In this document: piece after piece, positions 13,117-56,956 of the stretch
Layout of the letters: each line of letters opens with the position of its first letter
Numbering within the stretch: the stretch's first letter is position 1
Assembly (NCBI GenBank): GCA_050084515.1
Contig: CM114271.1
Span: 22,258,001 to 22,322,000 of the forward strand
DNA: 64,000 bases
Source of the DNA: Blasia pusilla
Lineage: Eukaryota
Reading direction: 5' to 3'
The notes under the pieces: model-generated
What the model was told of the DNA's origin: nothing
Seen by the model: only the letters and a program-made list of their open reading frames with translations
Databases searched by the model: none
Position numbers and translations under genes: made by a program

Positions 13117-13143
13117 CTCCTCCTCCTCCTCCTCCTCCTCCTC
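13117..13143. repeat. (CCT)n microsatellite in the DP leader region
   Basis: Run of tcc/cct triplets read directly. Confidence 0.9.
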
Positions 13144-13529: not shown

Positions 13530-13580
13530 GCCGGTCGGTCGGTCGGTCGGTCTGCCTGCCTGCCTGCCTGCCTGCCTGCC
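13530..13580. repeat. Compound (CGGT)n(CTGC)n microsatellite in the DP leader region
   Basis: ggtcggtcggtcggtcggtc followed by tgcctgcctgcc... Confidence 0.9.
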
Positions 13581-25270: not shown

Positions 25271-26512
25271 AAAATGCCATTTCTACTTCCTTGTTGCCTT
25301 CACACATCCCTTCTTGTTATACACTTATGATGCAAATAGAAGAGCATAACATCGGCACCTTCAAAGGAGTTGGATGCTCCTACACTTGAGGCTAGTGGGA
25401 CTCGAATAAGTGTAGGTGCAAAGGTATGTTATTATGTAGAAAAAATAAGGATTTATAGTTGAGACTTGGAAGCTTTTGTGCCATGGTTTGTTTAGTTACT
25501 TATTGCTCAATTCACATATAGTTTCCTGATCTAAAATTTTGGTAGGGGGTGGAATTTGACGTAACTTACCAAAGGGCATTGGAGTCCTAAGAAAGGCGAT
25601 GGATAGCACAATTCCAAGCAATGCGGACATCTATCGAGGAGAAGGTGGAAAAAATAAGAGATAGCAAACTACTAATTTGACTACACAATTAACCGACCTC
25701 ACAAAGAGGGTTGCTGATTTGGCAACGATGGTCACTCAAAATAATTCAAGTTAGATTGATATGTTAACGCACCACACCATTTAGAGATACCAACTTGTAA
25801 GATTTTTTCTTGTGAAACTTGAATGTCTTAATATGCCATGGTTGGAGATTGTTTAGATATGTGCAATCTTGAGCATTTTTATTGTTGTAGACCCAACTAT
25901 CATGTAATTTCAACTCACAAGTTTTCCAATATCAATTTTAATTTTATGTTGTTATCTCATATGTATACTATTTTCAGGGGTTCTTGATCCTTCAAAATCA
26001 AGACTTTCAAAACAAGTTACTGAGCCCATCAAGATTCACAAGGGTCAAGAGTATATGCACTTTGAAATTGGCAAGTATATGGGCAGATTTTACACCTAAT
26101 GCCTTATGCAAATGTTTATTACAAATTAGTGAGGTTAAGTCCTGTTTCTTTTCATAGCTTATACAAAAGACTCACATGTATTTCTCATGAAGGGTTGCAT
26201 AAGAGAAACAAGATCCCGACAATACTCATCTCCCACGAAGATGGTGTCGATGCATCGACAACTAAGGGTGAGTGAATTAAATAGGCATCATATTAGTCAC
26301 TCCAATTTTTTTGTTATTGGATTATTTCATGCCTTACAGACTAATACTTTGTACATCTTTTTTTTTCTATAATTTTTTCTCAGGTTTATAGTTGTCTCAT
26401 GTATGAGGGAAAGGATTGGGACCAGAACAAGGTGCTCAACCAAGAAATCCACCATCTGAAGTTGGCATCCAATCAATACTTTCTTCTCCAATGAAGAAAT
26501 TTTTGAAGACAA

Positions 26513-27270
26513 TATCGTGCGCATGCACATCGCTACACAACCCACATCGTTGGTGACATCTACACACCACACAACACTTATATTCCCCAACACATAGGTA
26601 GATCCACACCTAAACAAAATACACTCACGCATATACATTGGGACCCTACAACTGAAATCAAGAGTACTAAAAACGGCTTACCCGGCCTAAAACTCCACTC
26701 ATGAGTCTACATCGGCATATCAAACCACATCCACCCTTTGTTATGAGGGAATCCGAATGCTAGCACCCTAACTCCTATATATCCACACACGTCTATGCAA
26801 GAGAGGCACTCATTAGGCTCAATATGAGAAAGATGGCTTGAGAAATCCATCTCTTTCACTCTTATACCCTTGGGAAGAGCCAAAAAGCTCTTCCCCCAAG
26901 CCCTCCCAACGGTAACTTGCGTGCACAGGTTATTGGATGACCATTGACTTGTCCAATGGGTCATTTGACGGACTAAAGTAGGGAGATTTCCATAAACGAC
27001 GTTCCCGACGCAACAAACCTATCGCCAACCTCATCTGACATCTAGGGACAAAGTTACACCCAAACAACCCGCTGACTCACTATATCATCGACGCGATAGA
27101 ACTTTACCTACGTCAAAATAAGATGTGATAGCTATCGTGCGCAAACACATCGCTACACAACCCACATCGCTGGTCACATCTACACACCACACAACATAGA
27201 TCTTCCCCAACATACGGGTAGATCCACACGTAAACAAAATACACTCACGCATATAGACTGAGACCCCACA
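26513..27270 (-). repeat. 3' terminal B-A-B repeat block of the minus-strand DNMT-gypsy copy
   Basis: B1 27270-27133, 2-nt spacer, A 27130-26655, B2 26650-26513. Purine tract (TAAGGGGGCGG on minus) lies just before B1. Confidence 0.85.
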
Positions 27271-27299
27271 ACCGCCCCCTTAGCTGGCAGTCGGGTCCC

Positions 27300-28470
27300 C
27301 CTAACTCCATATAGCACACACATATGTACTCGACGAGATCTCCTATCCTATATAAGTCTAGCACCATTGGTGTCGTCATCCCCGCAACATTGCCACACTG
27401 CAACAACCCGCCATGTTGATCCCTCCAAGAGATCTGACATTCTTGTACCCTGCTCCAAACATAGACGCAGCTCCACGCATGCCTCACGAGCTCGTATGCA
27501 CTCCACGCATCTCAATGCTCATCCCCAACAATGATAAAATCAAACTCCCCACCATGGGAAGAGACATCCATCTTGGCATGTCTCTCAGTGGGACTATCCG
27601 CTACGGGAATGTCCTCCCCAACCACTATTTAATCAACTGACACCACATGTGAATGCTGCCAGCGTGGTCACCATATTCTCACGCGGTCGACCATCACTAA
27701 CTCTTGCAAACTGCACCGATAGATGGCTCATATGTTCATCACCTAATCGCCATCCTGGCCGTTAAGAAACTATCTCCTCCCAAAAATCCAGAATAAAACC
27801 AAGGGGATACAACAATGTATTCCCTACTAACATAGCATACAACTCTGTCGGCGTCGTAATCGCTTGCGTCTGCACCATTGCACTATCTGACTCATGCTCT
27901 TGCCAAAGTCTTACCACCAACTCTTGTCGAGTCATATATAGCGTGGGTGATACGCCCCCAATAGAGATTTGTATCTGAAAGGCATAATGCTCAATGTTGC
28001 ATTTTCGTGAACCCAACGCCAAACACACCGCCTTCCCTAACATCAAGGACTGCGCTCTCGGATCAAGTAGGATGCGTTGGAGGTGGTACACCGTACCTAT
28101 GGGACTAACCAAGAAAAAAACTCATGCTCAGTTATCCAACAACACCACACTTGGTGTGATCATGGCTCGCTCTATCGCTCACCGAGCTGGCATATCTACC
28201 AACTTTGCCGCCGCCGCATGCCATGACTCAATGGAGGACGTCTTGAGCTCTTGCTCTGAGGGCAAGTCTACCACCTCCTCAACTATGTCCGAACGAGAGG
28301 TAGTCACCTCTTCACGCTCACACAACATGGCGGCCACTCGGAACACCTCCGCTGGTCCAACTTCCAACGTCGCCAACTCCATAGTGGAAAACAACGGAGC
28401 GTGGCTCACTCTAGTGGCCACCTCCAACAATGTGGTCAACACTGGCTCCACCGGAGCCGGCATAGGAGTT
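27300..28470 (-). pseudogene. Gag-PR linker, aspartic protease and start of the DNMT domain of the deleted gypsy copy
   Basis: LVSPIGTVYHLQRILLDPRAQSLMLGKAVCLALG is homologous to 43385-43684 (degenerate LLDSGA protease motif). 28179-28463 is homologous to 43158-43451. Confidence 0.8.
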
Positions 28471-29298
28471 TTCTAGGGGCTGGTATTATGGATGGAGAGA
28501 GGAAGAGAGAGAGGAAGAGAGGAAGAGAGGAAGAGAGGAGAGTCTCTCTTCAAAAAGAAGGGCAAAATCCGTCTCCTCTCTTCAATTTTTTTTGACATTT
28601 TTGAAATTTTTGTTTGCTTTCAAATTCATGGAATCTTTAGAAGAGAGTAGCAAGTGGATCACATTCGGGCCTAAAGTAACCTTCTTTTTTGAGGCTTCCA
28701 AGAACAAGTAGACATCATAAGACCGCTACAAATATCCTTCCATCACTCTCCATGTGAGCCCAATTTTCTTCACATTGCCTGTCTAAGCCAGCTCTACAGT
28801 AAGCCGAGCTGAGGGGTATTAATGTCGGAGGACCATCGACAGATAATTTGACCCGAAGTAGCAATTTCACCTCAAGGAAAGGTTCAAATAAAGACTCTAA
28901 CTATGGTCTCAATAGACTCATGTGCCCTTCAAGGTTTAGCTTCTCTGAGGATGTGGGTGACATTATGGATTGTTGACTCTTCTTGCATTAAATATCCCAT
29001 CCGATCAATACTCATCCATGAGGGGGTTTCACAACAGAACAAATCACTAATTACTGATGGTAGCCAAAGACTTTCATGATAGCATTGGATGATGTTGGCT
29101 CATGAATGGGTGCATAAAGTATACCATGGAGTGTTATGCGTTTGACAACTTGGTTTCACCATTCTCTCAACCATTGAGAAATGTATGCATCAAGAAGAAA
29201 ATGTGATGAGACTGAGAGGACAATTGAACTAAAAGGTTGATAGCTATCATGAGTAAAGAGGAACGGATGCACCCATGTCCCTTCATTCAGACCCTTAA

Positions 29299-29710
29299 TG
29301 TCGGAATCCGACAGGTTGTACCCCTTCCAACCCGTCGGAATGCGACAATTTGCAACTCGTCGGAATCCGATTGGTTGCACCCCTTGCAAGCAAGCACACA
29401 ACAACAAAATAAGGATCTTGAGAAGTGATTCCATTCCATCCTGCAACCCATGAGAATCTGACATGAAAATCCGATAAGTAGTAGGAATCCAACACATCTC
29501 TGAAATACCGTGTTAGAGAAGAATGGTGTGATGATCATGGGGGGAACGAGGCAAAAGTGAAGAAGCCTACCAAACTGCCTGAAAAGTTGGACTAACAAGA
29601 AAAGAGTGGGATCACTCAAGCAGCCAACTTGTCGGAATTCGACAAGTTGCTTGCAAGGGGTTTAAAATATTGTGACAAGTTGCAACCCGTCGGAATCCGA
29701 CGGGTTGCAA
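29299..29710. repeat. Palindrome cluster 1 (subterminal)
   Basis: Perfect 15+1+15 copy TTGCAACCCGTCGGA-A-TCCGACGGGTTGCAA at 29680-29710, plus degenerate copies. Confidence 0.9.
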
Positions 29711-30769
29711 AACAAACAACCTCGAGAAGATAGACCAACACAATCGACAAGAACAACAAAAATTCAGCAGAAGTTTACAAAAACTATCATGATTCAAAGA
29801 CCTTGTGTCCTTTATTACATCTGAGGGAAGCTCGAAAATGTGCATTTGATCTTGTCTATGATTTCTTTAGCCTCGTCATCTACAAATTTACTCCTAACTC
29901 TCATAGGTTCCCGTACAAAAGGAATGTCTTGGGATACAAGTGGCTCCTCTGGCCGATTATAGACAAGGATCCAAAATGTTGGGGAATTCGAGATCCTTGC
30001 CCCTCCCCCTAGGTACACCATAACGGTCCCATGTAACATGATTTGAGTCCCAACACCTTCCTCAACGGTAAATCTTGTATGCTCTGCAAGGTGACATCCA
30101 TCCAATATCAATATGTGCTCCGTCCTTGGAAAGCACTAAATCCCTTCTCCAAAACGCTTGAGTAAAGTTGGGTCCAATAAATCTTTGAACTCACTCGTCA
30201 TCGTCCGATAGCTCTTCCAGAATTACTCTCGGCTTTGCCCTCCCGATTTTCGTAATAGTAGGAAGTGATGACGGTGTCACTATCAATGGTGGTTCTAGAA
30301 CTGGAGCTGTTGGCTTTGGAGGAGAGTTGTATACTCCCACTAGCCTATTTGCAAAGGTCAAAAAGTTTGGCCTTCCCTCAAGGCAGAGAATGTTCCTGCC
30401 ACTATGCCATGCACCTCTCATACTCGCCCCTGATAAGCCCACTAAGTCAAAGACCAAGTCACCCGGCCTCGAACAGAGCTCAATGAGCGTTTGCATCAAG
30501 GCAGGTGACTTTTCCCTTCCTCCAAGTAAGGGGGTCCCGTCTTGCATGTAAATTCCCGCGGGGGGTGGGGGATTGTAGAGACTATCTAAGCTGTACCCAT
30601 CGGAGCATGGATCCACTGGATCCGGGATCAGGAACACTTGGAAGTTGTGCTCGGGCCTTACAAAACAGTACAAAAATGAGTGGTCCATCTGTAAACAATC
30701 AGGTTAAAAATAATGTCACCAAAAAGAAAAAGCTAGTAGACCGCTGGTCTACTCTCCATAAATTGACAC

Positions 30770-31275
30770 AATGTGCAAACCATCGAGATCTGACGGGTTG
30801 CTTTTCAACCTGTCATACTAGGTCCATACTAATTACCAACTCGTCCAAACTTGGCCTATAGGCCTGACAGAATAGCGTCTTGTTGAAGTCCGACGGGTTG
30901 TCTTACAACTCTAAGACCCCTTTTTGGCCATGAGCAACCCGTCGGAAGCCGACAGGTTGCTCATCTTGCTGGACAGAACCTCCACTGTTTCGAGTGCGAT
31001 GGTTGGCTTACAACTGAATACAATTGTTAAGAGTTGAGAAGTTCCTAATATAAGAGCAACTCTTCACTTTCAAACGGGTTGCATCAATCCAGAAACACGG
31101 GGAAAAGCAGTGCTACTTGCAACCCGTTGGGTTTTGACGGATTGCAATAAATTGAGACTTGTTGGTGAATTTGCAACCCGTTGCTTTCACACGGACTGCA
31201 ACATCGCAGACACAAGATGTTGGGATCCGACATGTTGCATGCACAGATGCAACCCGTCGGAGCCCGACGGGTTGA
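30770..31275. repeat. Palindrome cluster 2 (last intron of the ParB-MTase gene)
   Basis: e.g. gcaacccgtcggaagccgacaggttgc at ~30934 and tgcaacccgtcggagcccgacgggttg at ~31248. Confidence 0.88.
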
Positions 31276-31944
31276 GAACTAAATTTGTTTAATAAGAGGA
31301 CTTACCCGGACTTGACTCGTCCCCGATCGGAGTGGATACTCGTTTTTAATTACCCATGATTGCGTCGTCCTCCACTTCAGTGACCTCTTCACGCACTGAA
31401 GGTTGAAGAGCTCGTCTTTGCTCCCTCCAGTGAGAACCAAGAAACAACCCCTGTCACTCAAATACGCATCAATAAAAGAAAATAATAGCGCGATCTGGTC
31501 GTACGAAAGCTGGATAGTGTCAGACGGATTGTTGTCCCACAAGCAAAACCTAGAAGGAAAATTCGAAACGAGGAAGTCCACCGCCACCTCCTCAACCACC
31601 CCATGCACCGTCCATGGGGCGTGCCCATTTCGAAGGAGTTTTTGTCCCACCACGTTCAATTTGTCGATGGCAAGTGTCGATTCCTGAGAACTGAAACACT
31701 GCAGCTCATCGACAAGATGAGTCAATTGAACAAGGAAATTTTTCCTGGTGGTTGTTTCCCTATGCCTGCCCAAGGATGATGGAGTGTATTCCACATCCTT
31801 ATCTCCTCCCTCGGACGAACCAAACGTCTCCCACTTCTGCTTTTCTCGAGTCTGCTCTCGGCTTGTGGGAGTCTCTGTTACCTCAAACTCCACATGAGTT
31901 TTCTTGGATGAGGACCTGGTCCGGTCCTCTAGCCCAACTCGCCT

Positions 31945-32090
31945 GGAAAATTCCGCCTCTCACCTGGACGATTCCGCCTCTTGCGTGGACCATTCCGCCT
32001 CTCACCTGGACGATTCCGCCTCTCGCCTGGACGATTCCACCACTCGCCTTGAGGACTCAGCCTTTTTTCAGGAAGACTCCGCCTGAGAAT
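31945..32090 (-). repeat. In-frame 21-bp coding tandem repeat (AESSRxE)n
   Basis: ttccgcctctcacctggacga repeated ~5-6 times. Confidence 0.85.
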
Positions 32091-33460
32091 TCCTCGATCC
32101 CCTTGCCTTCCTCAAACCCGTTGTGGATTTGTCTTTGGCGGTGACAACCTTGCCCACCAACTATGTTGTCTTACGGGCTTGCTCTTCCACATCTCCTTCG
32201 AAAAAATTGTTAGGTTGCACAAAGTTTGGAATGTCGTCCCTACCTACGACCAATGCATCATACACCACGCGTAGATTTTTTTGTGTAATGTCCTCTGGGT
32301 CGTTGAAGTCCAACTAGATTGGACAATTGTTAACATCCCAGTCGGACATGCCTTGTCCCATCTCCATGTCGTACATGGAGAATGCCTCTACATCAGGCAA
32401 AGAAGCCCACAATTTGCAGGCTGCCGGTAATTTTCCTAGGTACCTCCATTCTTACAATTGATGAGGTACCTGTACACCATCCGCTGGGAAAATCTTTGTC
32501 GAGATGACTCGGCCGCCTTGTCTTGAAGATCCCGCTTCTTCTTTGCAAAATCCCCTTTTTGGGCGTCTATTTCCTCATCCAACTCTGCCTGAGGGAGCAT
32601 GTGATTCTTGAACATCATCCTACATCATGGGTTTTTCGTGGGCTAATCTATGATGTCCTCAAGCCATAGTTCAAAATCTTCTACAGCCTCTTGGTTTGCT
32701 TCCTTTGGAACAAGCTCAATCTTCTTCAGCTCCGCTTGAAGACCCACAATCATGGACTTCCCCAGAAGGCGTAACGCGTACCAGAATGACCATTCCCGAA
32801 GCCAATGGGAGATCGCAGGATCTGAAACTCCCGGAGGATTGTGTGTGGCCCTCTTTTGGGCCTCAGTGCCCTCGAGACTGATTTTCATAAGTCAGATTTG
32901 CCTAAACTCGGATATCCCAAAGAGCGCAAATCTGTGCACGCGGTCCAAAGACACTTTCTTGCCGATCCGACCATGTGGATCTTCGTCTCTCTTCCGCTAG
33001 CGCTTGATTATCGCCTTGAGCTCCTTGTGAAACTCCGAGCCAAGTTCGGATTTGAGAATCCCAATGTAGTGCTGCATCTTGCTTGCAGTGTACTTTGTAG
33101 CTGCAGATACGCCGGATTGAATAAACTTTGCACGTTCCGACGCTGATACGTTCTCCCTTCGCTCCAGTTCCAACGAAGCACTCTTCTTGGCTGCGTGGAT
33201 CTTGGACCAACATAGGATTGTGACGGCTGCATCTTGGGAAATGAAGGTATTTGCCCAAGTCTTCTTTTTTACTTGACCTCCCTTTGCCAACATCTCATTT
33301 TCCAGACCATCGCCCAGGAATCCCTTGCACTCTGCCGGATGCGTCAGAAGCACCTTCTTCATCCTATCGCAATCCTAGATCGACTGGTGGGTGATATTTC
33401 CCTCGGATAAAATCTTGAACATCCAAACACAAGGTAAGAATACTGGAAGCTATTGGGTTC

Positions 33461-34275
33461 CTGCAACCGGTCGGACTCCGACGGGTCGCAATTTTGTCAA
33501 CCCATAGGGGTCGAAATGGTAGCACAGAGATAAATGTTGCAACCCGTCGGAGTCCAACGAGTCACAACACATATCTTTGTGTTACACTTATTACAACACT
33601 CTTGAATTTTTTAGAGAGAATTGCAACCCAGTCGGACTCTGAAGTCGGACTCTGACGGGTTTTGGAATGACTTCAATTCGGAGACAAGCTCTCGGAAAAA
33701 AACTGCACATATCAAACCTTATGAGTCCGACGAGTTGTGGAATGACTTCAATTCGGAGATAAGCTCTCGGAAAAAAACTGCACATATCAAACCTTCGGAG
33801 TCCGACGGGTTGTGCGATGCCTTGTAAAGCTGAAATTGGATGCCTAAAAGCAAGCTCTTGTACTCTAACTACCTACCCTTGGGATGTGTGGGGGGATGCA
33901 ACTCGTCGTAGTCGGACGAGTTGCTTTCGGCCAAAAGTATCCGAAAAATACCGGACAGTCCAGCAACTTGTCGGACTCCGAGGAGTTGCTTTTAGGCATC
34001 CGATGATTTGTTAGCTCTCGTTGTGCAACTCGTCGGAGTCCGACGGATTGCAGAACAAATAAATCATGCAGTCATTTTTCCACCCGTCGATGTTTGACTG
34101 GTTTCAGTATCCCGGATTAATCTGGTGTGCTTGGCCATCAGGCAACCCGTTGGACTTCGACCGTTTGCTTGACTACGACATTGACCACAAACAGGATGGT
34201 GGCAAGAGACTCAAATCATTCCTTCCCATCTTTAAGCTTTCCAATTATTCAACCTGTCTGACTCCGACAGGTTGA
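33461..34275. repeat. Palindrome cluster 3 (intron 2 of the ParB-MTase gene), including a ~75-bp tandem duplication at ~33660-33810
   Basis: About a dozen degenerate gcaac(c/t)cgtcgga(g/c)tccgacgggttgc copies. Confidence 0.88.
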
Positions 34276-35889
34276 AGCAATCAAACTTAAAGAAGAGGAA
34301 ACTTACATATTCATTGCATGCATTGCCATTTCCAACATTGCCATGTGATGAGGAAATGGATGGAGCACAACTGCCTTCACGCAAAAATCCGCCTCCAATG
34401 AATTTGGGCGCTCCTCTGCAAACTGCGTCCACACCATGTACCTGTGGTTTCCATCCGAGATGAAGAAGTAAGGGTTCCCCATCCTGCTAAATTTGGTTCC
34501 TTCAATCGCTCTTCTGAACTCTTGATCTCTCATCCTCCAGAAAGTATCCAGCGCCTCCAAGTCCTCTTCCGTCACCACCGCTTGGGTTCCATAATTGTCG
34601 TAAGGTTGAACATAGAATGGAGGGAAGCTGTCGACGTAGGATGTCACTGCCGACTGTTTGAGCTTTGCAATGTCCTCCTCCGACTAAATTTTGCGGACGT
34701 ACCCCATTGTCCGTAATTGATAGAGTGGAATTCTCGGGGCGTTCTGGCCCTCCATCAGTGCCATATGCTTAACAATCTGCCACAATGGGGACCAAGTCAA
34801 TAAAATAATTAGCCTTCACATAACTCAAATTTTTCTTACCTGCTCAAAGATTGGGTCGATGTCGAGGCCTGCCAACTGCTCTGGGATAGCAGCAGGCAAG
34901 TCCACGGTGAAACTCATCGATACGATAAAGGTCGATTTCTTTGGCACGGTTCAAAGACGATGAAGACTCTTCTCCTACTTCTTCAAATATGTCCACCATC
35001 TCCACACTTGCTGTCCTCATGACCTCATTGTCTGTCACTTGAACTTCGGCCGTTTCCTCAACCGATTTTAGATTCATGGTGTCCTTAGACCTCATCAGAG
35101 ACATTTTTTGCATCTCAACACTCTCTGTTGGACGAGCATAGCTTTCTTCAATGGCAATTGCTTTTTCCTTTTGAGCTTTCGCGAATTTTGCTCGCCTCAC
35201 AGAGGCATCAAGACGCTTCTTCTGGTGTTTCTCATCCGCGACTCTTTTCTTCAAGGCCTTTGATGCCTCATCCTCGGCGTTTTGCTTAGCGAGCTCCTCT
35301 AGAACACTTTTTGCTAGAACCTCCTGCGTGTACACATCTGCTTCCCTTTTCCACTCCTCTATTTCTTGTTGCCTTATCTCATTTTCCAAACAAGGACCTA
35401 GAAATGGTGACGTTGGAGTCCTTATGGACTTGGGAGTGATGCTCCTACCTTGGTTGCTTGTGTTTTCTTTCTCGTCATGATGCATGTTGGGTCAGTTCTT
35501 CCTCTTTGACAGTCTAATCTGCTCTTGTGCACGATAGATCCCTCGGAGCATTTCCTGATGAAGCACCGTGACCCTAAACCTGACTCTCTTAGCCTTTCAT
35601 GATGAAGTGCCGTGACCCTCTACCATATGGGCTTGCCAAAATCAAACCCTCGTAGCGTCGGGTGTTGGATCTTTGTAACCTTCTAGCAAAGTGGTGATGT
35701 AGCCGAGTTTGGCAGCGGATAGGAAACGTCAACTGTTGCGAGGAAGAGCACATGAAATCGCGAAATGAAAAACGGGAATGATCAAAACCTCGGCCTTTTA
35801 TACTTTTCCAACCATTGAGCTGACCGTTGGGTGGTTGGGTCATATCGACAGCGACGTGTCGGCCGTTATGGAACTTTGCACGTGGGAAC

Positions 35890-36720
35890 CCGGGCAACCC
35901 GTCGATCTCCGACGGGTTGCACGCTTCCCTCGTCTTGGGGATGCGGGGTGAGTTACCAAGTCAACCTGTCCGAGGCCGACGGGTTGCACGCGTTCCTCGT
36001 CCTCGGGTAACAAGGCAACCCGTCGGAGACCGACGGGTTGCCTGGGTACCTCGCCTTGTTACCCGAGGGCCAAGTTGCACGCTTCCCCCGTCTTGGGGTA
36101 ATAAGGCAAGGTACCCGCGCAACCCGTCGGAAACCAACGGGTTGCACGCTTCCCTCGTCTTGGGATTACAAGGGGAGGTACCCGCGCAACTCGTCGGAGA
36201 CCAATAGGTTGCACACTTCCCTCATCTTGGGAAAACAAGATGAGGTATCCGGGCAACTCTTCGGAGACCAACAGGTTGCAAGCTTTCCTTGTCCTTGGGT
36301 AAGAATGCGACAAAGCATGGTCCCGAGGCAAGCCGTTGACCTCCAACGGGTTACAAGGTCTACCATGGGTTGGACACTTCCCACCATACGGCAAAACTGC
36401 ACTCACGGTTTGCACGATTCATTGGACAAAAGAAATTGACGCGAGATCCAAAAGGGAAAGTGAGGTTAGGTGCCTTACGAATCCGTCGCAGTCCCCAACG
36501 GGTTGCTGTAGCAAATCCATGCGATGTCTCGTATCTCGATGTTAGCAAATCCCGACTCCAATCATATAGGTCAGCCAAGCAAGGGGTACCAACCCAACGG
36601 ACTCCGACGGGTTGCAAGTTACACTCATACTCTTACAGAAGCAGGTACTCCGTGGCTTTGCAACCCACGTGTCTAAGTCCCAAATTTTGCAACCTGTCGG
36701 ACTTTGACAGGTTGCAACAG
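35890..36720. repeat. Palindrome cluster 4 (between the divergent genes), partly in 67-bp tandem units
   Basis: Palindrome starts at 35894 and 35961, then 36119, 36186 and 36253 (67-bp period), most followed by a cacgcttccctcgtcttggg-like sequence. Confidence 0.9.
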
Positions 36721-36995
36721 GATTGAATCCATTGCGTCAGACAATCTCACCTACCAAACAACATATTTTCAGTCGAATTTTATCATGAGAATAACCGTCA
36801 CTGTTCACTATAAATTAAACATTCCCATTCTCATTCTTATTCTTATTCTCATTCTCCACCCAGTGGAATCATCTAGGAATGGATAATTATGTGAAACTCA
36901 CTTGTGGGAGTCATCTAGCGGCCCTTCCTCAATCATAAATAGTTTGATCGCAAGCTCGTGAATCTTTCATACCACTTGATGAAAATTTCCTCTCA

Positions 36996-39900
36996 GTGCG
37001 ATTTCTTCTCCAAATTGGAATAATCTTTGTTTCCAAGGACGTTAAGGTGGACGTTAGGGTGGACGGTATGGAGGACGTTGTAGGTGAGACAGTCCAGCCA
37101 ATGATAGCAGACCGTAAAGTACGGAATCTCCTACCTCTAAAAAATGGTCAATACGGAGTTTATGGCTTGCCTCTAAATTCCTATGTTTCCCAAGTAGACA
37201 GTCCAGAATTTCCTAGTGCACCGAGCTCCACGTTTGCCACTCCAAGCTCAGTAGATCCGGCTTCGACTCCAACTTCAAACGTTCGTAACAATGTTGTACT
37301 TCTTGAAGACATTCCGGATGTCGTCAATCTCAGTGGAACTGTCGGACACCAACCGGGTCTTTTGTTTGCCTACTCGTTCCTCTTGGGAGTATCAGGCAAC
37401 AGTTCGCTGTCATCTCTGCCCTTTAAAATATTCAAGCACATTCTTATCGACGAGATGCCGCCCACGTACGATGGTAATTGCATTTTTGAGTTGCCCCCAC
37501 TTGCTCGTCTTGCTTAAAAGAAAGATGGAGGACGCTTGAAGGATATGGACAGAAAGTCTTATTGTCATCAATGGTGCAGCTTCAATGGACTATTGCTTCA
37601 ATTCGAGATGGTCCTTGGATCGTTTTTCGCCGCCAATGCGTGGAGCCCTAGAGTGTAGAAGTCCTGCATGCCCGTATCTAGAGCGCAATGGGCGAGTCAA
37701 TACGTCACAATTTCCCCCTAAGAACGCAGAAACTCCATATGAGGTCGGTGTGACCATATCGCCGGGAGGCCATCGATATCCTCATTATCAGGCATCCCCT
37801 TTCTACGTTGGAGCGTGTCCTGCATACATATTTTTCATTGTGCACAACTTCAATTCTACGTCCGAGTATACAAGGCTGGAAGTTCATGTTGGCTCCCACA
37901 TTCATCTTGTTACCGGTGTAATTCAGAGACATATCAAGGAGGATGTGGCAAAGAAAGTGGCCGAGGTATATAGAAACTCTCCGGGATCAAAGCTCAGAGT
38001 GATAAAGTTAACAACATCATCACAAATTTGTGAAAAATTGCTTAGAGTCCCTGAGCAGTGCGAGATCATGGCTGCTGAGGAGAAACAACTATGGGAAAAT
38101 CTCGCATTTCTCGCTGATCCAGAATGCTTCTGGAATTTGCTGCCTCAAATACGGGCACTGGATGGAAAGACGGCCGGAGTGGAAGCCATTTCTAGAATCA
38201 AGGTGAACTCAAGATTTCCATTTATTCAAAGATGGCAGTTCATGGGCCAAGGAGGCGAAGGATTCAGGGCTTATGTCTTCAAAATGTCAACGATATGGTA
38301 GTCGAGTGGCCTAGATCTTAAAGATCGAATGAGGGAAGGGGAAGATCTTTACGGCAGGTGAGTAAGCTTTGATATTTGCTACAGAGTGCTGAATGGATGG
38401 TTGACCATGGGTGCTCACGTTTATGACCATGTGCAGAAGGGACTCAAAACTACATTCGTCTGTGAGGTAAAAGCAAAAGACGTTGGCAGTTTGAAGATGT
38501 GTTGGTTACTCTTATTGGAGGTGGTGAAGGAAAACAAAAGGCCACCTCCGGAAATTTATGGATTCATGGCGGAAAATGCACAATCTGGGTGGATTGCTAT
38601 CAGGGAAGTGTTATGGAGTGGACAGGTTCAACCAGAGAGGGAAAGGTCGGATGCTTTCCATTGGCAACAGTCTGCGACCCGGTACACCAAATCTTGCATC
38701 AAGGAGAATAAGAGGACAAAGCATGTCACTCTACTCCAACGTTGTAAGGACAACAAAACCTTGAAACATGCCATGGAGTGCTAAGAAGAACTACATGGGT
38801 GGTGGAGGAAGCATGCAATTGAGGGGAAGAACAAAGAGTTGTGCTCTTGGCTCAGTTGGTGGATTGTACGAATGAGATAATGGGAAAACTTCATGCGTGA
38901 GGTGAGTTCAGTATTTCGTCCTGTCGAGCTCATGTTGACAATTTTTTGAAAAGTTGCAACTCAAGTTGAGAAGTGTGGGCACTATAGGGATTTCAAACCG
39001 AAGAAAAAGCAACCCGTCGAATGCGAAGGGTTGCGTGAGTGTGCAACCTATCGGAAACCGACGGGTTTCCTAAGTGTGCAACCAGTCAAAAACCAAAGGA
39101 GTGCATCAAGAATGTTTGTGTTACCCGTTGGAGCGCGACATGATGCACGAGGAATGTTTGTGCAACCTGTCGGAACCCCATTGGTTGCATGAGTGTGCAA
39201 CATGTCGAATCCCGACGGGTTGCAAGTTGCATGTATACAAGGCTTGCAGATAATTTGACCTGGATGGGTTGCAAGCTGCAAGCCTGCGAGTTAACTTGGT
39301 TAGCAACCCCTCAGATTCCGACAACTTGCATCTGTCTGCAACGTGTCAGATTCCGACTAGTTGCGTCTGTATGCGATTCCTTGCATTAAGACAGGTTGCG
39401 GCTGTCTCCAAGTCGCATCCAAACACGTTGCATCAGTTCAAGTTAACTGGAACCCGTCGAATTCCAATAGTTGCAAAGCTTCGTGTGTGGACATTTCTTG
39501 CAAACCAACGGAATCCGACAGGTTGCACAAGGATTTTTGACACAACCCATCCGATTTCGACGAATTGTAGAAGCAGGTTCCTGGGTGCTGGGTTGTAGTA
39601 AAAGGTTACAGGGACATTCCAGGGATGTCTCCGACTTGCAACCCGTTTCTAGTCGGAGGCTGGAAAATCCATGTGCGACTCGTCGGATTCTGATGACTTG
39701 CACTTGGATCTTCCAGCTCGAAGTGGCCAAAGTTACTTGCAACCCGTCCAAATCCGACGGGTTACAGTAGGTGGTTCCTAGATGTTGCAACACGTCGGAA
39801 ACCGATGGGTCGCAGAGTCATTCATGGGATGCATCTCACTTGCAACCCGTCTGGTTCCGACAGGAAGTTTTTTTCTTTGCTCATAGAGCTATTTTCGTTC

Positions 39901-40282
39901 CCTTCTCACATTGCCGTCGTTGCAGGGATTGAACATTCATGAAAATGCCCTCTGCCCCAATACGAGTGGAGCAGAAAGTGTTCATTCCTCTTGGAGGTCG
40001 TCACAAGCATGCCAAAGAATTTCACTTGTGGAGGCATGCCAACAAGACCAGGCAAGAGCAATGCTACAATCAGCAGCATTCCATATCTTCCTCACAAAAG
40101 GCATAACAAAAGGAAGGGGGCCTTCGATTAACGAGCTCTATGTCAGGGCGGCATTGAGATCTGGTGATGAAAAACTCTATGTGGAAGCCTTCAATCGGTG
40201 CGTAGCAGGAACTCTCCTCGAGCAAGATGTCCACATTGGTGGAGACATTCGTGGGCGTGTTCAAGACTTCCCATACAGATGA
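36996..40282 (+). pseudogene. MULE-like DDE transposase with N-terminal WRKY/GCM1-type zinc finger; one phase-0 intron 38902-39925; several stops
   Basis: LECRSPACPY...CPAYIFFIVH...HVGSHIH; VSFDICYRV..WLTMGAHVYD; GFMAENAQ; RERSDAFHWQQS (C/DxxH); PNTSGAESVHSSW. Confidence 0.78.
39005..39865. repeat. Palindrome cluster 5 (transposase intron)
   Basis: More than 15 degenerate tgcaacccgtcggaatccgacgggttgca copies. Confidence 0.88.
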
Positions 40283-40899
40283 TGGTAGAGCAGTCCGAGC
40301 GAGACTCGTAGAGACCAGATAAGTATCTTGACTTCAAGCAAGTCCTTATGCTGTAGGAATGGTCTCAGCAAGGGAGTAGTACCCTCTCAAGCTTGTGTAC
40401 ACTTTGAAGCTTTCTCATTCTTGATGGAGGAGTAAAGAACTCATTTCTTCATTCTGATGTGCGATGCATATGTATGAGAATTCTTATTGGGTTTGCAGAG
40501 TGAAGAGTGAATCAGGAGAACACTTTCATCATTAGAATAATCAACATTGAGTTGTAAGAAATCTGTTCGATAGAGAGTAGCCTGCCTACACGGATTGAGC
40601 TCCAAAAGTAGGAGAAGCCAGCTTCTTGTTGAGGTCTTTGTGAGGCTCTTTGATGTTAAGTGAAGATCTACCTGAGCGTGAATTCAATTCCACTAGAGAG
40701 AATCGAGGAAAGAAATCTTGGTACCAAGGGAGAGAAGAATACATTGACAAGTGATTGAATCCGAATTGTACACACTTAACTACAACTATTGCAAGATAAA
40801 TGCCATCTTGAACTCTATTTTCACATAATCGTGATCCTTTTGGCGATCGAGCTCATTAAATTAATGTAAAAAGAACAATTCTTAAACTTCTTGTACATT

Positions 40900-41460
40900 A
40901 CATCCGCACATGTCCCCTCCTATGGGTCAATCTCAACCCCAACGCTCGATGGCTCGATTACTCTCGCAACACCCCGAGTCACCATCGCAACAGCCTCAAC
41001 TTGAGCCGCTCTACACATAAATCCCATCCTTGTAGAATCCTCATTAGCACATGGTAAGATGTGGAGGCTGGCGCGACACTAGCTACTCTTAGCTTCGTGC
41101 ATGCGTGCAATGGCGTCATCGTCATGGCAACAATCCTCTCCTCCAACTAATCTATGCGCGTAAGGAGCGCTGCATCATGTGCATGTCCTCCATCTACTAT
41201 GACGGGTGATAGCACTCTACCACTACAATCACCCACCAACTCTCTCACCCCCAAGTCATGTGCCTACATCAGGACGTACCTCATGGCAAAGATCATAATA
41301 CGTATCCCTAGTGTGACCATATCGGTGATAATGATCACATTGCCACTATAGTGGGGCCATCCTCTGTGGCTCCTGAGCAATCACAGGTGCCCGTGGCCCT
41401 CTCCCATGATGTGGGCAGTTTCTCTACTTATGTGGCCCATCACACGTTGTCGTATAGTAA
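40900..41460 (-). pseudogene. Gag fragment (two degenerate zinc knuckles) of the minus-strand DNMT-gypsy copy
   Basis: TCDGPHK*RNC and CDHYHRYGHTRDTYY. The reverse complement of 40900-41170 aligns with 42750-43010. Confidence 0.75.
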
Positions 41461-41470
41461 AATCAGCCAG

Positions 41471-42659
41471 TGTGTAAACTCCTTCCTCGTTAAGTGTTAG
41501 ATAGAGTTTTATTAGTATTAAGTAAATTAGCTTAGGAAAAGGAAATTCCCATGTTTAAACCTCTTTATGGTGCCTCTTCTATGCCGGCCCAAATTTATGA
41601 AAAGAGGTAATAAATAAAGGATGACTTTATAAAAGTAAAGTACTGAGGTTGGTGCTTTAATGAAAAGCAAAAGTAGGCTTGGTTGGTGGTTAGGTTAGTT
41701 GAGGTAATTTGGAAAATATCAAGTGGGTAAAAGATGATATTTTGGAAGAGATAAGAGGAAATCTATTTGTGTCAAAATGTGATTGGCTAAGCCTTGAGAG
41801 GAAGCCATGTGGCACAAGATAAGATTAGTTCTATTTCGTACCCTTTTGGGTCTCTTGTGAGTATATAAAAAGGAGGGACCTTCAAGGGTTCATCACCTTT
41901 TATTCCACATCTTGAGTCTCTCGTGTCACTCTTGAGTGTATGGCTTTGGAATTGCTTGCTCTTCCAATGAGAGTGGATCACTTCTCTTGGGAAAGTAACT
42001 TGATCATGCTCTATTTTTTGAAAGATTTCTAGAATGTGGTGTGTGTGGAAATGAGAGGTTTGTCACCTTAGAGGAGTTTAGTCATACTAAAATAGTGAAT
42101 GTTTTGGTTTGTTACTTCCCAATGAGAGTGGATTATCCCTCTTGGGATAATAACTCCGCCAAAACCCATTTTTGAGGAGAGTAGATAATGTTTGTCAAAC
42201 ATGGATAGGGGTGGAGTACGAGTTGTGCCCAAATTTCCTTTCCTTAATCCATATCATGTCAAGATACTTTTTGTAGATAGAAACTGGTTCACTCGTTATT
42301 TAGTTTATCACTTTCGGGAAGCGTTCATGAACGAGGTCATTCAATCTCCAACTCCGGTTATCCTTCCTATCGTCAGATATGGAAGGACATGGGATTATAC
42401 TTTGTATGTCCTTATATAGCGATCCATGGACATCAATATGCTTGCTCAAGTAGGGTTTAACACTAGTTGTGTTATCTTCCTCATGTACAAGGGTAAAATA
42501 GTTTATAAAGATTTTATAGTTAGGAATTTCGGAGTCCGATGTTACGAAAAAGTGATCGCCTCGGCACTTCCATTTGTGATACCTGTCGTGAGAAAATGGA
42601 GAGTATACATAATAATTTTATATTGAAAAAAAATATCTTCTTAGAGAGTTCATTTTGCA
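41471..42659 (+). mobile_element. LTR-like segment of an unrelated element
   Basis: Abrupt AT-rich non-coding block, TG start and CA end, TATA-like gtatataaaa at ~41861. No TSD or partner LTR seen. Confidence 0.35.
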
Positions 42660-44263
42660 TCGACCACGTATGCTGCAATTAGAAGGCATGGTGGTAGAGG
42701 ACCACCACCAACTAGAGAAGATGGAGCATGAGCACCAGAGCCGACACTTCTCTCATACATCGATCAATTGGAGTAGAGGATTGCTGCCATGACGATGATG
42801 CAGCTCAGGAAAGGCACGGAGCCGCGAGCAACTATTGTGGCTCCAACTTCTGCCTCTTACCCTGACCCGGGTGAGGATCTCGCTAGTATGGGGTTTATGT
42901 GTAGCGCAACTCTAGTTGAGGCAGCTGCAGTGGTGACTCATGGTGCTATGAGAGGCATCGAGCCATAGAGAGGTGGAGTTGAGATTGACCCATCGGAGGG
43001 GACCGATGGGCGGCAAGCTAGGGTTCTACAGTCATTCACATTGTCGGAGGCACTACACACACCATCGATGGTGCATTGACGACTAGTGGTGCCTACAACT
43101 CAGGCAAGTACGTCGACGTCACGAGGAGTTGGAGTGACAAATCCTATGTCGGCTTGAGTGGAGTCAATGTCGACCATAGTGTTGGAGGTGGCCACCAGAG
43201 TGAGTCAAACTCCGCTATTTTCCGCCATAGAGTTGGCAACGTTGGGAGTTGGACCAGCTGAGGTGTTCCGGTTGGCCGCCATGTTGTATGAGCATGGAGA
43301 GGTGACTGCTTCTTATTCAGAGGTAGTTGAGGAGATGGTGAACTTGCCCTCGGAACCGGTGCTCATGACGTCCCCCATAGAGTCATGGCATGCGGCGGAG
43401 CAGAAGTTGGTAGATATGCCAACTCGACGGGCCATAGAGGAGCAGTGGTGATACCTAGAGTAGTGTTACTGGATAATCGAGCTAGAGTATTTTGCTTGGT
43501 TAGTCCGACGGGGATAGTATACCACCCGCAGTGCGTCCTACTTGATTTGGAAGCGCAGGCCTTGATGTTAGGGAAGGCGGCGTGTTTAGCGTTGGGGTTA
43601 CGGAAGGCCGACATTGAGACTTGTCCCTTCCAGATAGAGACCTCGATTGGGGGCGTATCACCCACGCAGTATATGACTCGATAGGAGATAGTTGTTAGAG
43701 TCCAGCCAGAGCATGCGACGGATAGTGCTATGGTGCGCACATGTGCGATTACGACACAAGCTAAGTCGTACAATGTGTAGGTGGGGAGTATAGCGTTAAA
43801 TCCCCTAGGATTCATCCTTGACTTTTGGGAGGAGACCGTTGCTTATCGGCCAGGGTGGCGGTCAGGTGACGGGCAGATGAGTCAATTACCTTTGCAGTTT
43901 GCGGGACGAGGTGGTCGATCACGAGACGAGTCTGTGACCACGTTGGCAGCTTTCACAAGTAGTGTTAGCTGGCCATGAGAGTTGTTGGAGGGGAACGCAC
44001 ATGCGGAGGATGTCCCAATAGCGGATAGTCCCACTGAGAGACAGGCCATGGAGGGTGTCTCTTCCCATGTTGGCGAGACCTCTTCACCATTGTGGGGTAC
44101 AACTTGAGAGCTAGAGAGGAGTGCCGACAACCTCGTGACTCATGCGTGGAGTCATGCCTTTATCTCGGAGGAGCGAGAGTCAGGTGGCGATCGGGCTCCT
44201 GGAGTGGAGACATTGACCCCATTGGATACCACACGCGTTGTGTGGCAGTGTCCAGAGGAGGGT

Positions 44264-48496: not shown

Positions 48497-48575
48497 GGTC
48501 ATAGGTCATGTTAGAGAGATGTGATATTTTCTATCTGGAGTTGGGGGAAATCCAACTGCCAGCTAGGGGGCCGGT

Positions 48576-49331
48576 TGTGTGATCTCCATGTACGTGTATG
48601 AATTTATTTCTGTACATGTGTGGATCTACTTGTGTTTGGGGAAGACTGGTGTTGTGTGGTGTAAATCTGACCAGGGATATATATTTTGTAGCGATATGTA
48701 TGTGCACGACAGTTGTCACATCTCAGTAGCCGATAGGCCGAGATCTATCGTGGATAGGGCGTAGGAGCTAGCGGACTATCTTGAGTGTAACTTTGTCCCA
48801 TAGTGTTGGACGAGGTTGATGATAGGTCCATTGTGTTAGGAACGTCATTTCTGATAACTTTCCTGTTGAGGTCTTTCACAACCGAGTGACTTGTTGACCA
48901 GGTCATCCGCACTTGGTAACCTGTGCGCGTAGGTTACCAAGGATTTGGCTATTTTTAGGGGAAGAGCCTTTTGGCTCTTCCCAACCCTATATAAGAGAGG
49001 AAGATGGCTTTCCTAAGCACTCTTTCTCGTGTTGGGTCGTTGGAGCACCTCTCTTGTATGTGTGTGACATAGGACTATGGTGCTGGCATCCGGATTCCTT
49101 AATAGCACAGGGTGGACGAGGCTCGATATGCCAATGGAGATTGAGGAGTGGAGTTTTAGGCCCGGTGTGTCATTTTTTACTACTCTTTATTTTATTGTGT
49201 GATCTCCATGTACATGTATGAGTTGATTTTTGTACATGTGTGGATCTACCCGTGTGTGGGAAAGATCGATGTTATGTTGTGTAGATGTGACCAACGATGT
49301 ATGTTGTGTAGCGATATATATGCGCACGACA
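48576..49331 (+). repeat. 3' terminal B-A-B repeat block of the + strand DNMT-gypsy copy
   Basis: B1 48576-48711 and B2 49196-49331 (136 bp each, TG...CA) flank A 48714-~49190. Purine tract AGGGGG at ~48565-48570. Confidence 0.88.
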
Positions 49332-49502
49332 TCTGCACCAAAGAAATCTGAGAAAAATGGATAGCGCTTCCGTGCACGACCTCTCAAACTAAAAAAACGA
49401 AAAATACAAACGCCAACCAGTGTCTCCAAGGGCTCCCGACTGAGGCAACTCACTTGCCTACCTGCAAATAACGAATTCTCTGCCCCCTCGCATCTTTCTC
49501 AT

Positions 49503-56954: not shown

Positions 56955-56956
56955 CG

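Follow-up and report, generated by a model that had tools for sequence, protein, structure and literature searches.

To our knowledge, the recognition and re-marking of a transposon's own DNA by a protein that the transposon encodes is known experimentally only for the VANC proteins of VANDAL elements. VANC proteins are reported to target short specific motifs that have accumulated, in part as tandem repeats, in VANDAL non-coding regions, with element-by-element specificity, and both their binding and hypomethylation have been demonstrated in Arabidopsis (PMC10398659). Accessory genes that join a ParB-like part to a methyltransferase or an oxygenase were first noted in 2025, in algal transposons, and their roles are putative. 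The Ectocarpus element Sola1-1_Ec32 (21.5 kb) is described as carrying, opposite its transposase, a gene for a 1104-aa ParB-like and N4C/N6A methyltransferase protein that its authors propose to bind and epigenetically modify the element's own sequence (Dinatale et al. 2025, PMC12477816). Red-algal Plavaka elements are described as giant DNA transposons with a PF01555 methyltransferase gene (PAG2) and a ParB-like gene (PAG3), the latter adjoined by tandem arrays of inverted repeats, and homologous accessory genes are reported from Mutator elements of Chondrus (Petroll et al. 2025, bioRxiv 10.1101/2025.02.11.637652). Neither of these algal reports is known to define a binding site. In the ParB-MTase of a B. 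cereus prophage, the ParB domain is reported to be a non-specific nickase, not a reader of sites (PMC3592412, PMC5512222). Rotifer N4CMT, which targets transposons (PMC8885841), and Marchantia MpDN4MT1, with the motif TSPPY (bioRxiv 10.1101/2021.02.12.428880), are described as host genes with canonical catalytic motifs, proven 4mC activity and no ParB part.

The window, the whole 64-kb stretch of DNA that was analysed, contains two divergent genes that we read, with slightly less than even confidence, as the relic of an autonomous MULE DNA transposon whose repeated palindromes would be cis-acting sites, the protein of its accessory gene being the favoured binder. An earlier, sequence-only reading knew of no description of a transposon combining ParB and methyltransferase parts, but the combination is already in print for Ectocarpus (PMC12477816) and red-algal Plavaka (bioRxiv 10.1101/2025.02.11.637652). 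The relic supplies a concrete candidate site, a 27-bp dyad in 28 copies with a clear position-specific profile, and widens the range of the class to a MULE-like element whose sole database relative is a liverwort protein.

Like Sola1-1_Ec32, the window element is a large DNA transposon (here about 11-17 kb) with an opposite-strand ParB-like and methyltransferase gene of ~1,100-1,200 aa; the architectures agree by description, with domain scores here below threshold. Compared in the same way, Sola1-1_Ec32 is a Sola1 element of a brown alga, whereas the window element is MULE-like and the sole relative of its accessory gene is a liverwort protein; it is not known to have a cognate repeat array (PMC12477816), whereas the window has clusters of palindromes; and the window element is a dead copy with a non-canonical motif IV. 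Plavaka shares the repeats beside a ParB-like gene, and the same hypothesis of binding and modification of the element's own DNA has been put forward for it, but as described its PAG3 fuses the ParB-like part to a 2OG oxygenase and its PAG2 the methyltransferase to SET, whereas here the ParB-like and methyltransferase-like parts belong to one protein, and the repeats of the window occupy, besides the spacer, introns of the two genes. VANDAL elements resemble it as MULE-type transposons with an accessory protein and partly tandem motif arrays in non-coding DNA, of which the cis-side pattern alone is seen here; VANC, as described, is neither a ParB nor a methyltransferase. VANC motifs are short and are not known to form long dyads. 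The bacterial ParB-MTase protein is ~400-450 aa in length. In prokaryotic and phage ParB-MTases, as in the window protein, a ParB/Srx-type domain at the N-terminus precedes an amino-methyltransferase, and the gene is carried on a mobile element (PMC3592412, PMC5512222), but the window protein has a further ~600 aa and its motif IV is degenerate. With N4CMT and MpDN4MT1 it has in common a bacterial-type, PF01555-like methyltransferase domain, probably of the permuted beta class, encoded in the nuclear genome of a eukaryote, but the window gene is carried by a transposon and has NFPS at the motif (DLPT in a relative from Riccia).

Gene structure

The accessory gene, on the minus strand, has a putative ATG at 35485-35483 and a stop codon at 30193-30191. 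Its first exon (34840-35485) encodes a charged, helix-prone N-terminus without a Pfam match and undergoes a frame change near 34900. An intron of 63 nt (34777-34839) separates this exon from the ParB/Srx-like exon (34307-34776; 'FFISDGNHRYMVW'), which contains one in-frame TAG at 34686. A 943-nt GT-AG intron (34306-33364; donor AT/GTAAGT, acceptor ...GATAG/G) restores the frame into a long, pseudogenised exon (31306-33363) that comprises a conserved middle region (WLxxWSFWY), 21-bp coding repeats (a tandem array at 31938-32063) and the methyltransferase-like N-terminal half. After a 617-nt GT-AG intron of phase 0 (31305-30689; the donor, at 31305, is GTAAGT, and the acceptor, ...TTTACAG, ends at 30689), the last exon (30194-30688) encodes the methyltransferase-like C-terminal half (motifs X/I, 'DLVGLSG') with no in-frame stops.

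The transposase gene, on the plus strand, has a putative ATG at 37068-37070 and is separated from the accessory gene by a spacer (35486-37067). Exons 1-2 (37068-38901), which can be bridged by a GT-AG intron of 79 or 106 nt from 37474, encode an N-terminal region, a Cys/His-rich block and a DDE-like core. A 1,024-nt GT-AG intron of phase 0 (38902-39925; donor GAG/GTGAGT, acceptor TTGCAG/GG) precedes the last exon (39926-40282), an open frame. The three long introns preserve the phase of the reading frame, and a cluster of palindromes lies in each of them.

Decay and candidate ends of the element

The accessory gene contains 11 in-frame stops and two frame changes, ten of the stops and one of the frame changes (near 32465) being in the long exon, and the transposase gene contains four in-frame stops, all in exons 1-2. 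Both genes are pseudogenes, which the sequence-only reading did not mention, and this copy of the element, the single copy on which the analysis rests, is dead. It cannot encode any protein now, so that the proposal that the element encodes its own marking or anti-silencing module does not hold for the present copy.

MULE terminal inverted repeats are often long, and the target-site duplication is 8-11 bp. A search for terminal inverted repeats at 29290 and 40330, where the ends of the element had first been placed, gave none. Outside those positions, a left arm at 27471-28473 (arm B) is matched in inverted orientation by a right arm at 43136-44151 (arm B'), with 75% identity over 1,024 aligned positions. 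These 1-kb arms may be the true ends of the element, or they could be two unrelated insertions; no exact target-site duplication of 8-11 bp was found at their outer ends over the ranges tried, and with 25% divergence between the arms one would be unlikely to have survived. Neither arm contains a palindrome half-site at three or fewer mismatches; should the arms be the true ends, end binding is not what the palindromes serve. Downstream of the last transposase exon, inverted repeats of 250 bp (40904-41156 and 42758-43013; 74.7% identity over 257 aligned positions) bound a probable nested insertion (40904-43013).

The accessory protein

The C-terminus of the accessory protein matches the SAM-binding half of beta-class amino-methyltransferases below threshold but repeatedly, and that assignment, made in the sequence-only reading, is supported. 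Pfam N6_N4_Mtase matches the last exon with E 6.8e-4 (20.1 bits against a cut-off of 26.7; positions 165-219 of 221), M.RsrI in the PDB with E 7.5e-4 (residues 64-118 against 226-280), and nine PADLOC methyltransferase models with a best value of 7.4e-5; a tblastn search with the C-terminus matched 52 plasmid records and 211 from phages. The AdoMet-binding motifs X and I (FxGxG) are present in 'EKSPALMQTLIELCSRPGDLVFDLVGLSGA'. Three plasmid methyltransferases from the tblastn matches gave only PF01555 and no ParB part in a Pfam scan, and the one phage match inspected is, by its annotation, a 240-aa gene for a DNA methylase with no ParB part shown.

The methyltransferase-like N-terminal half has no significant match to a profile or PDB chain. 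The order of the halves is nevertheless consistent with the permuted beta class, in which the catalytic half is N-terminal to the AdoMet half. In the long exon, the segment 'VDFLVSNFPSR' resembles motif IV, and hhalign sets its NFPS on DPPY weakly (E 0.076). At the position that hhalign pairs with TDPPY, the window reads SNFPSR and the Riccia relative MDLPTH, and neither contains (D/N/S)PP(Y/F/W). The suggestion that the protein marks DNA by methylation is therefore doubtful. Because motif IV is non-canonical in both known members of the family, binding, nicking or NTP-dependent clamping would be likelier activities than base methylation, and the non-canonical catalytic loop points to binding or clamping.

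The assignment of the N-terminal part is less firm. An arginine patch after a beta-strand, DGxHR, is the consensus of the ParB/Srx superfamily, and the exon at 34307-34776 contains DGNHR ('YFFISDGNHRYMVW'). Pfam DUF1015, which we take to be a member of the ParB clan, matches this exon with E 1.4e-3 and 2e-3 (18.1 and 17.5 bits against a cut-off of 25.8), whereas ParB_N, NCBIfam, PADLOC and PDB sequence searches with the exon gave no match. AF2 models, with pLDDT of 39 for this exon and 38 for a second model, were unusable. Thus the profile and structure comparisons returned sub-threshold N6_N4_Mtase and DUF1015 for the accessory protein, and of the ParB/Srx-like domain first proposed the motif stands while no profile exceeds its cut-off; a ParB/Srx fold is weakly supported. 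Bacterial ParB reads its palindromic parS sites through an HTH domain, not through the DGxHR N-domain, and clamps in a CTP-dependent manner; no Pfam HTH profile matches 32997-33374.

In an exhaustive search of 1.84 billion representatives with the exon of the methyltransferase N-terminal half, the sole relative was KAL3687003.1 of Riccia sorocarpa. By tblastn, this protein (Riccia P0001) is colinear with the long exon in three blocks, through the stops (E 1e-11, 7e-11 and 2e-4), which indicates that the accessory protein family is real and conserved.

The transposase

The transposase gene is MULE-like, a superfamily assignment that we infer from look-alikes. In the Atlas protein-language-model search, whose look-alike score is a feature search lead and not an alignment, 23 of 30 clusters for the core fall in the MULE PF10551 set, with a top score of 0.94. 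The gene has no Pfam match, whether to the MULE and Transposase_mut profiles (PF10551, PF00872) or to any other, even at E up to 10, and none in NCBIfam or the PDB. The core motifs read 'SFDICYRV ... FMAEN ... DAFHW', and the DDE triad of this mutated copy is read as D ('SFDICY'), E ('FMAEN') and E ('GAES'); the last exon contains 'NTSGAESVHSSW', where, by the MULE consensus, the candidate catalytic E would lie. The description of the gene as a MULE-type transposase thus holds as to its look-alikes but not as to Pfam, and the second acid is E, not D. Weaker leads for 37540-38301 (0.79-0.86) are FAR1, GCM, FLYWCH and ZSWIM.

A dyad palindrome confined to non-coding DNA

The 13-nt half-site GCAACCCGTCGGA occurs 56 times at two or fewer mismatches in the window, and every match lies at 29307-39854; in 100 shuffles the mean was 0.69 and the maximum 4, and none reached 56. 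Twenty-eight pairs of plus- and minus-strand half-sites form full dyad palindromes, with a spacer of 1 nt in 27 of them, and one at 29680-29710 is perfect (15+1+15 nt). The 27-bp consensus, present in at least 28 copies, is GCAACCCGTCGG-N3-CCGACGGGTTGC. As had been proposed, a single palindrome recurs in five clusters and is absent from exons. Cluster 1 (29307-29708; three full palindromes, including the perfect one) is 3' of the accessory gene, clusters 2 (30789-31275) and 3 (33463-34275) are in its 617-nt and 943-nt introns, cluster 4 (35894-36715) is in the shared spacer, and cluster 5 (39009-39854) is in the long transposase intron. Cluster 1 is real, but its earlier label, subterminal, is unproven. 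None of the 56 half-sites falls in the 5,866 bp of assigned exons; all are in the non-coding part of 29291-40282, which amounts to 5,126 bp (binomial p 2.8e-19); the sites are not independent, so the five clusters are the conservative count beside that p value. When three mismatches are allowed, 79 of 81 matches lie within 29290-40330. The palindrome had been thought absent elsewhere in the window, and there is indeed no full copy in the remaining 53 kb, but two lone half-sites at three mismatches occur at 11659 and 58454.

That the same palindrome occurs in introns of each gene and in the spacer they share, but in no exon, joins the two genes as parts of a single unit. It would otherwise be necessary to suppose that a MULE relic and a separate host or transposon ParB-methyltransferase-like gene became neighbours by chance. 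Such a coincidence could explain why the two genes are not exactly bounded by terminal inverted repeats or a target-site duplication, and why the annotation of the Riccia homologue, encoded on a contig of 49 Mb, is that of an ordinary hypothetical protein. It is very improbable, as the palindrome fills the spacer and introns of the two genes and is otherwise represented in the window only by the two lone half-sites, the two genes have decayed to a similar degree, and a head-to-head layout of ParB-methyltransferase and transposase is described in Ectocarpus (PMC12477816).

Three clusters consist in part of tandem arrays, as VANC targets do (PMC10398659): 75 bp x 2.2 at 33647-33814 (TRF) in the 943-nt intron, 67 bp x 3.5 at 36074-36310 in the spacer, and 35 bp x 2.2 at 39024-39099 in the 1,024-nt intron. 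These arrays would suit palindromes that have no protein partner and are either self-propagating, hairpin- or minisatellite-like repeats or sources of small RNA, having been cleared from exons by purifying selection; absence from exons is expected of any insertion-type repeat, and tandem repeats of transposons are reported as siRNA sources (PMC10398659). We nevertheless judge this explanation unlikely, as most of the palindromes lie outside the arrays at irregular spacing, full palindromes are missing from the rest of the window, and only the palindrome is common to the clusters: its flanks are not conserved, so that the clusters are not copies of a longer repeat. A fixed 27-bp dyad with a constant centre and unconserved flanks is, on sequence grounds, the pattern of a recognition site.

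Candidate readers of the palindrome

Transposases commonly bind repeated subterminal motifs, and the transposase's own Cys/His-rich DNA-binding region could just as plausibly be what reads the palindrome. If its N-terminal domain, of WRKY/FAR1 type, bound the palindromes in the manner of the subterminal and internal motif arrays of En/Spm (TnpA) or Ac, the ParB-methyltransferase-like gene would be unrelated cargo. The look-alikes at 37540-38301, at the low scores given above, and the clusters in the intron and promoter spacer of the transposase gene agree with this arrangement. As a whole it seems doubtful: four of the five clusters are within or beside the transcription unit of the accessory gene, no site occurs in the candidate 1-kb arms or in the stretch from the last transposase exon to the right arm, and fingers of WRKY/GCM1 type usually bind as monomers to short sites, whereas the dyad spans 27 bp.

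Under the favoured reading, with the accessory protein as binder, the ancestral element would have been an autonomous MULE, perhaps spanning 27471-44151, with ~1-kb inverted arms and two divergent genes. Its accessory protein of ~1,200 aa would have had a conserved middle region between an N-domain of ParB/Srx-like type and a C-domain resembling a beta-class amino-methyltransferase, and the dyads in the promoter spacer, in introns of the two genes and in the accessory 3' flank would have been cis-sites for a dimeric DNA-binding protein encoded by the element. We infer that the accessory protein bound the palindromes; by recognising the non-coding DNA of its own element it may have altered chromatin or transcription there, as VANC does, with a presumed effect on silencing. 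A more specific version, which we consider quite unlikely, is that a MULE of the land-plant lineage encoded a ParB-like protein that loaded at parS-like 27-bp dyads across the promoter and introns, spread or clamped, and shielded the element from silencing, its methyltransferase-like domain having lost canonical catalysis; this would be a eukaryotic, nuclear and transposon-borne counterpart of bacterial ParB-parS, of common ancestry with the accessory genes of ParB-methyltransferase type in algae. With intact copies, should the source genome or liverworts have any, the binding hypothesis could be tested directly.

The palindromes themselves have decayed. By the sum of their mismatch counts, the 28 copies differ from the consensus at 96 of 728 positions, a mean of 13%, which fits neutral decay and the 25% divergence between the 1-kb arms, and suggests that the sites were near-identical while the element was alive.

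Palindromic sites of the element

The 13-nt half-site GCAACCCGTCGGA, with two mismatches or fewer, has 56 matches across the 64 kb of the window, none of them outside 29307-39854, whereas dinucleotide-preserving shuffles of the window give a mean of 0.69 matches and a maximum of 4. With three mismatches or fewer, 79 of 81 matches lie within the element, the decayed MULE-like transposon relic that the sequence-only reading had placed at 29290-40330. Plus- and minus-strand half-sites pair into 28 full palindromes, of which 27 share a centre of 1 nt, and one copy (29680-29710) is a perfect palindrome over 31 nt. The position profile of the 79 half-sites gave the conserved core GCAACCCGTCGG; positions A2, A3 and T8 are the most conserved (75-79 of 79), followed by C1 (73/79) and C4 (72/79), while the central base is random and the flanks are without conservation except for a preference for T at position -1. 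A central GANTC was considered as a target for a CcrM/HinfI-type methyltransferase and was dropped, being present in only 11 of 27 palindromes.

The palindromes form five clusters (29307-29708, 30789-31275, 33463-34275, 35894-36715 and 39009-39854, numbered 1 to 5). None of the 56 half-sites falls within the 5,866 bp assigned to exons (binomial p 2.8e-19, a value that is overstated because the half-sites are not independent, so that the five clusters are the safe count). Tandem arrays (75 bp x 2.2, 67 bp x 3.5 and 35 bp x 2.2) make up parts of three clusters, and comparison among the clusters found no common unit longer than the palindrome, for which reason an origin of the palindromes as MITEs was rejected. 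The palindrome had no match in metagenome, viral and genome contig collections. The sequence-only reading had described one palindrome recurring in five clusters of the element and sparing the exons, and this description is correct for all 56 half-sites, since nothing longer than the palindrome is common to the clusters and the 64-kb window contains the element only once.

The accessory gene

The accessory gene is transcribed from the minus strand, divergently from the transposase gene. From a putative ATG at 35485 it consists of a charged N-terminal exon (35485-34840), a 63-nt intron, an exon containing the motif DGNHR (34776-34307), a 943-nt GT-AG intron that contains cluster 3, a 2,058-nt exon (33363-31306), a 617-nt GT-AG intron that contains cluster 2, and a last exon (30688-30194) that encodes the methyltransferase-like, AdoMet-binding end; the reading phase is exactly restored across both long introns.

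In every library tried, the last exon resembles the AdoMet-binding end of beta-class amino-methyltransferases: positions 165-219 of the 221 in the Pfam profile N6_N4_Mtase (E 6.8e-4, at 20.1 bits below the 26.7-bit cut-off), M.RsrI in the PDB (E 7.5e-4) and nine type II/III methyltransferase models of PADLOC (best 7.4e-5). By tblastn, 52 plasmid and 211 phage records matched across the same ~55 residues, and among the matches listed, 13 of 15 plasmid rows and 24 of 25 phage rows are annotated as DNA methyltransferase or methylase. The N-terminal half of the methyltransferase-like domain (31650-31306) had no profile match and no match to PDB sequences, and a two-row profile of it found only six unrelated PDB matches (E 0.2-1.4). 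By pattern, the expected strand-4, motif V/VI and motif VIII elements are present in this half, and hhalign against three plasmid PF01555 proteins weakly (E 0.076) set 'VDFLVSNFPSR' on 'IDFILTDPPYL'.

The DGNHR exon has a sub-threshold match to Pfam DUF1015 (E 1.4e-3) and none in NCBIfam, PADLOC or PDB sequence searches. Its layout, a '...seedi.kL..S' helix and a P..V.p strand followed by 'yffisDGnHR', resembles that of ParB N-domains, and the exon probably encodes a ParB/Srx fold.

Within the long exon, a tandem repeat of six 21-bp units (31938-32084, minus strand) codes for heptad-like 'EAESSR' units within the linker that precedes the methyltransferase-like domain; two units now contain TGA. 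Directly 3' of the gene, a 106-aa open frame on the minus strand (29815-30135, 'HILILDGCHLAEH...') has no Pfam match and may be left over from another gene or have arisen by chance. An echo of 'DAYISQWLREW' at 29159-29191 is probably due to chance (E 0.15).

Relatives of the accessory protein

With exon 31279-31959 as query, phmmer run exhaustively against 1.84 billion representatives retrieved a single protein within the E limit of 0.001, the 488-aa hypothetical protein KAL3687003.1 of the liverwort Riccia sorocarpa. Three blocks of this protein align in the same order with the window (E 1e-11, 7e-11 and 2e-4 against the window sequence) and take in the motif W-L-x-x-W-S-F-W-Y and the methyltransferase N-terminal half, which reads 'IDLLLMDLPTH' in Riccia. 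The motif (D/N/S)PP(Y/F/W) is missing in both known members, the window copy and the Riccia protein, which argues that the predicted catalytic loop is non-canonical by conservation rather than by damage to the window copy alone. AF2 models were of very low confidence for both the DGNHR exon (pLDDT 39.4) and the Riccia protein (pLDDT 37.8, from a 4-row alignment).

In word-based protein searches the Riccia protein retrieved only itself, and the DGNHR exon retrieved none of the longer proteins. A homologue search with the transposase read-through found none, and a peptide-pattern scan of metagenomes matched 175 stretches, of which none was confirmed. An origin from a prokaryotic ParB-methyltransferase was rejected, as no ParB part was seen in the four plasmid and phage matches inspected: by Pfam, the three plasmid methyltransferases have PF01555 only, the phage protein is a 240-aa annotated DNA methylase, and ParB_N (PF02195) was found in none of the four records behind these matches.

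The transposase gene

On the plus strand, a GT-AG intron of either 79 or 106 nt can link the first transposase exon (37068-37473) to a block ending at 38901, which is followed by a 1,024-nt phase 0 GT-AG intron (38902-39925) that contains cluster 5 and by the last exon (39926-40282). The gene has no match in Pfam or NCBIfam, and a PDB sequence search returned one unrelated match only. In a protein-language-model search with exon 38362-38784, the MULE (PF10551) set accounted for 23 of 30 look-alike clusters (top score 0.94), and 37540-38301 gave weaker leads to FAR1, GCM, FLYWCH and ZSWIM. The motifs read by eye, namely the D in SFDICY, 'C/D-x-F-H-W', a 'W..W' region and 'GAES', with E replacing the second D, fit a MULE core, and the gene is quite probably MULE-like.

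Extent and decay of the element

The ends proposed by the sequence-only reading are without a terminal inverted repeat, none being found at 29290 or 40330. A 1-kb inverted repeat is located further out (27471-28473 versus 44151-43136, 75% identity), and its arms bracket both genes roughly symmetrically once a nested 2.1-kb insertion is discounted. MULEs typically have long terminal repeats, and the 25% divergence between the arms matches about 13% decay per lineage. Counted against an element of 16.7 kb bounded by these arms are the lack of a detectable target-site duplication at the arms and the presence of a seemingly unrelated repeat, unit A, next to the left arm; the odds of the 16.7-kb model appear about even.

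Unit A is a TRIM-like repeat of ~800 bp with 140-bp terminal direct repeats; besides the copy adjoining the left arm, two more are found right of the element, one inverted (72%) and one direct but partial (85%); the three are at 26512-27314, 48531-49332 and 49504-49994. The nested segment (40904-43013), between the transposase gene and the right arm, is bounded by 250-bp inverted repeats of 74.7% identity and is probably a non-autonomous DNA transposon; its ORFs have no Pfam match.

Both genes are dead. The accessory gene is interrupted by in-frame stops at 11 places and changes frame twice, and the transposase block 37540-38901 has four in-frame stops, for which an explanation as small introns was ruled out. 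The palindromes differ from their consensus at 96 of 728 positions (13% by summed mismatches, a value capped by ascertainment). CpG transitions account for 43 of the 143 substitutions in the 79 half-sites, and the two C positions before the first G also often show C>T; this pattern is the signature of cytosine-methylation decay. The observed/expected ratio of CpG is 0.5-0.97 over the element versus 0.35-0.43 in host-like sequence. A search of sequencing runs listed no RNA run, and the DNA runs matched shares of 0.15 or less of the sequence words.

A candidate reader of the palindromes

The palindromes are best read as a putative recognition site for a dimeric protein encoded by the element: the 27-bp dyad keeps a fixed centre over at least 28 copies, is found solely in the promoter, the introns and the 3' flank, and has mutated neutrally since the element died. 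The accessory protein is the favoured reader, with roughly an even chance of being the correct one, because four of the five clusters are located in its transcription unit or promoter and because ParB-like genes occur with inverted-repeat arrays in independent transposon lineages. That the transposase reads the palindromes is unlikely; the 1-kb arms contain no palindrome, which, if the arms are the ends, speaks against the palindromes as end-binding sites of the transposase. Even less likely, given the dyad and its fixed centre, the palindromes have no protein reader.

Methylation of the palindromes by the accessory protein is quite improbable because motif IV is degenerate. The accessory protein would more likely bind, nick or nucleotide-dependently clamp the sites, with an anti-silencing or regulatory outcome. 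The sequence-only proposal of a marking or anti-silencing module is accordingly retained in part, its methylation component being doubtful.

Published parallels

The sequence-only reading knew of no description of the combination, but genes joining a ParB-like domain with a methyltransferase have already been reported in algal transposons (PMC12477816). In the 21.5-kb Ectocarpus element Sola1-1_Ec32, a gene of 1,104 aa that combines ParB-like and N4C/N6A methyltransferase domains lies opposite the transposase (Dinatale et al. 2025, PMC12477816, which cites Iyer et al. 2011 and Petroll et al. 2025). As described by Petroll et al. (2025, bioRxiv 10.1101/2025.02.11.637652), PAG2 combines PF01555 with SET, PAG3 combines a ParB-like domain with a 2OG oxygenase and is adjoined by tandem inverted-repeat arrays, and Mutator elements of Chondrus carry homologous accessory genes. 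ParB-HTH-methyltransferase fusions are described in chlorophytes and chytrids (Iyer et al. 2016, PMC4738411). In the literature, no report was found of ParB-like and methyltransferase accessory genes in a land plant or bryophyte, nor of dyad arrays inside introns of both genes, although supplements may hold such families. The element belongs, as a dead copy, to a class of transposon accessory systems that was recognised recently and is putative in function; what makes it valuable is an explicit candidate site, an extension of the class in the direction of land plants and a canonical catalytic motif whose loss is conserved.

Other features of the window

Two exons of a gene for Gpi1, a GPI-GlcNAc transferase component (3759-5369, plus strand, E 1.6e-37 and 1.5e-24), lie in ordinary host sequence with a CpG observed/expected ratio of 0.35. 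At 12001-14000 is a GC-rich island (0.56) with strong negative GC skew and ORFs of 213-261 aa without Pfam match. By eye, ORFs at 45647-46995 (plus strand) resemble reverse transcriptase/RNase H fragments of LTR retrotransposons. A young-looking Ty3/gypsy chromovirus (55938-63213), with LTRs at 55938-56954 and 62191-63213 that are 97% identical, has matches to zinc-knuckle/protease, RNase H, integrase zinc-finger, SH3 and chromodomain.
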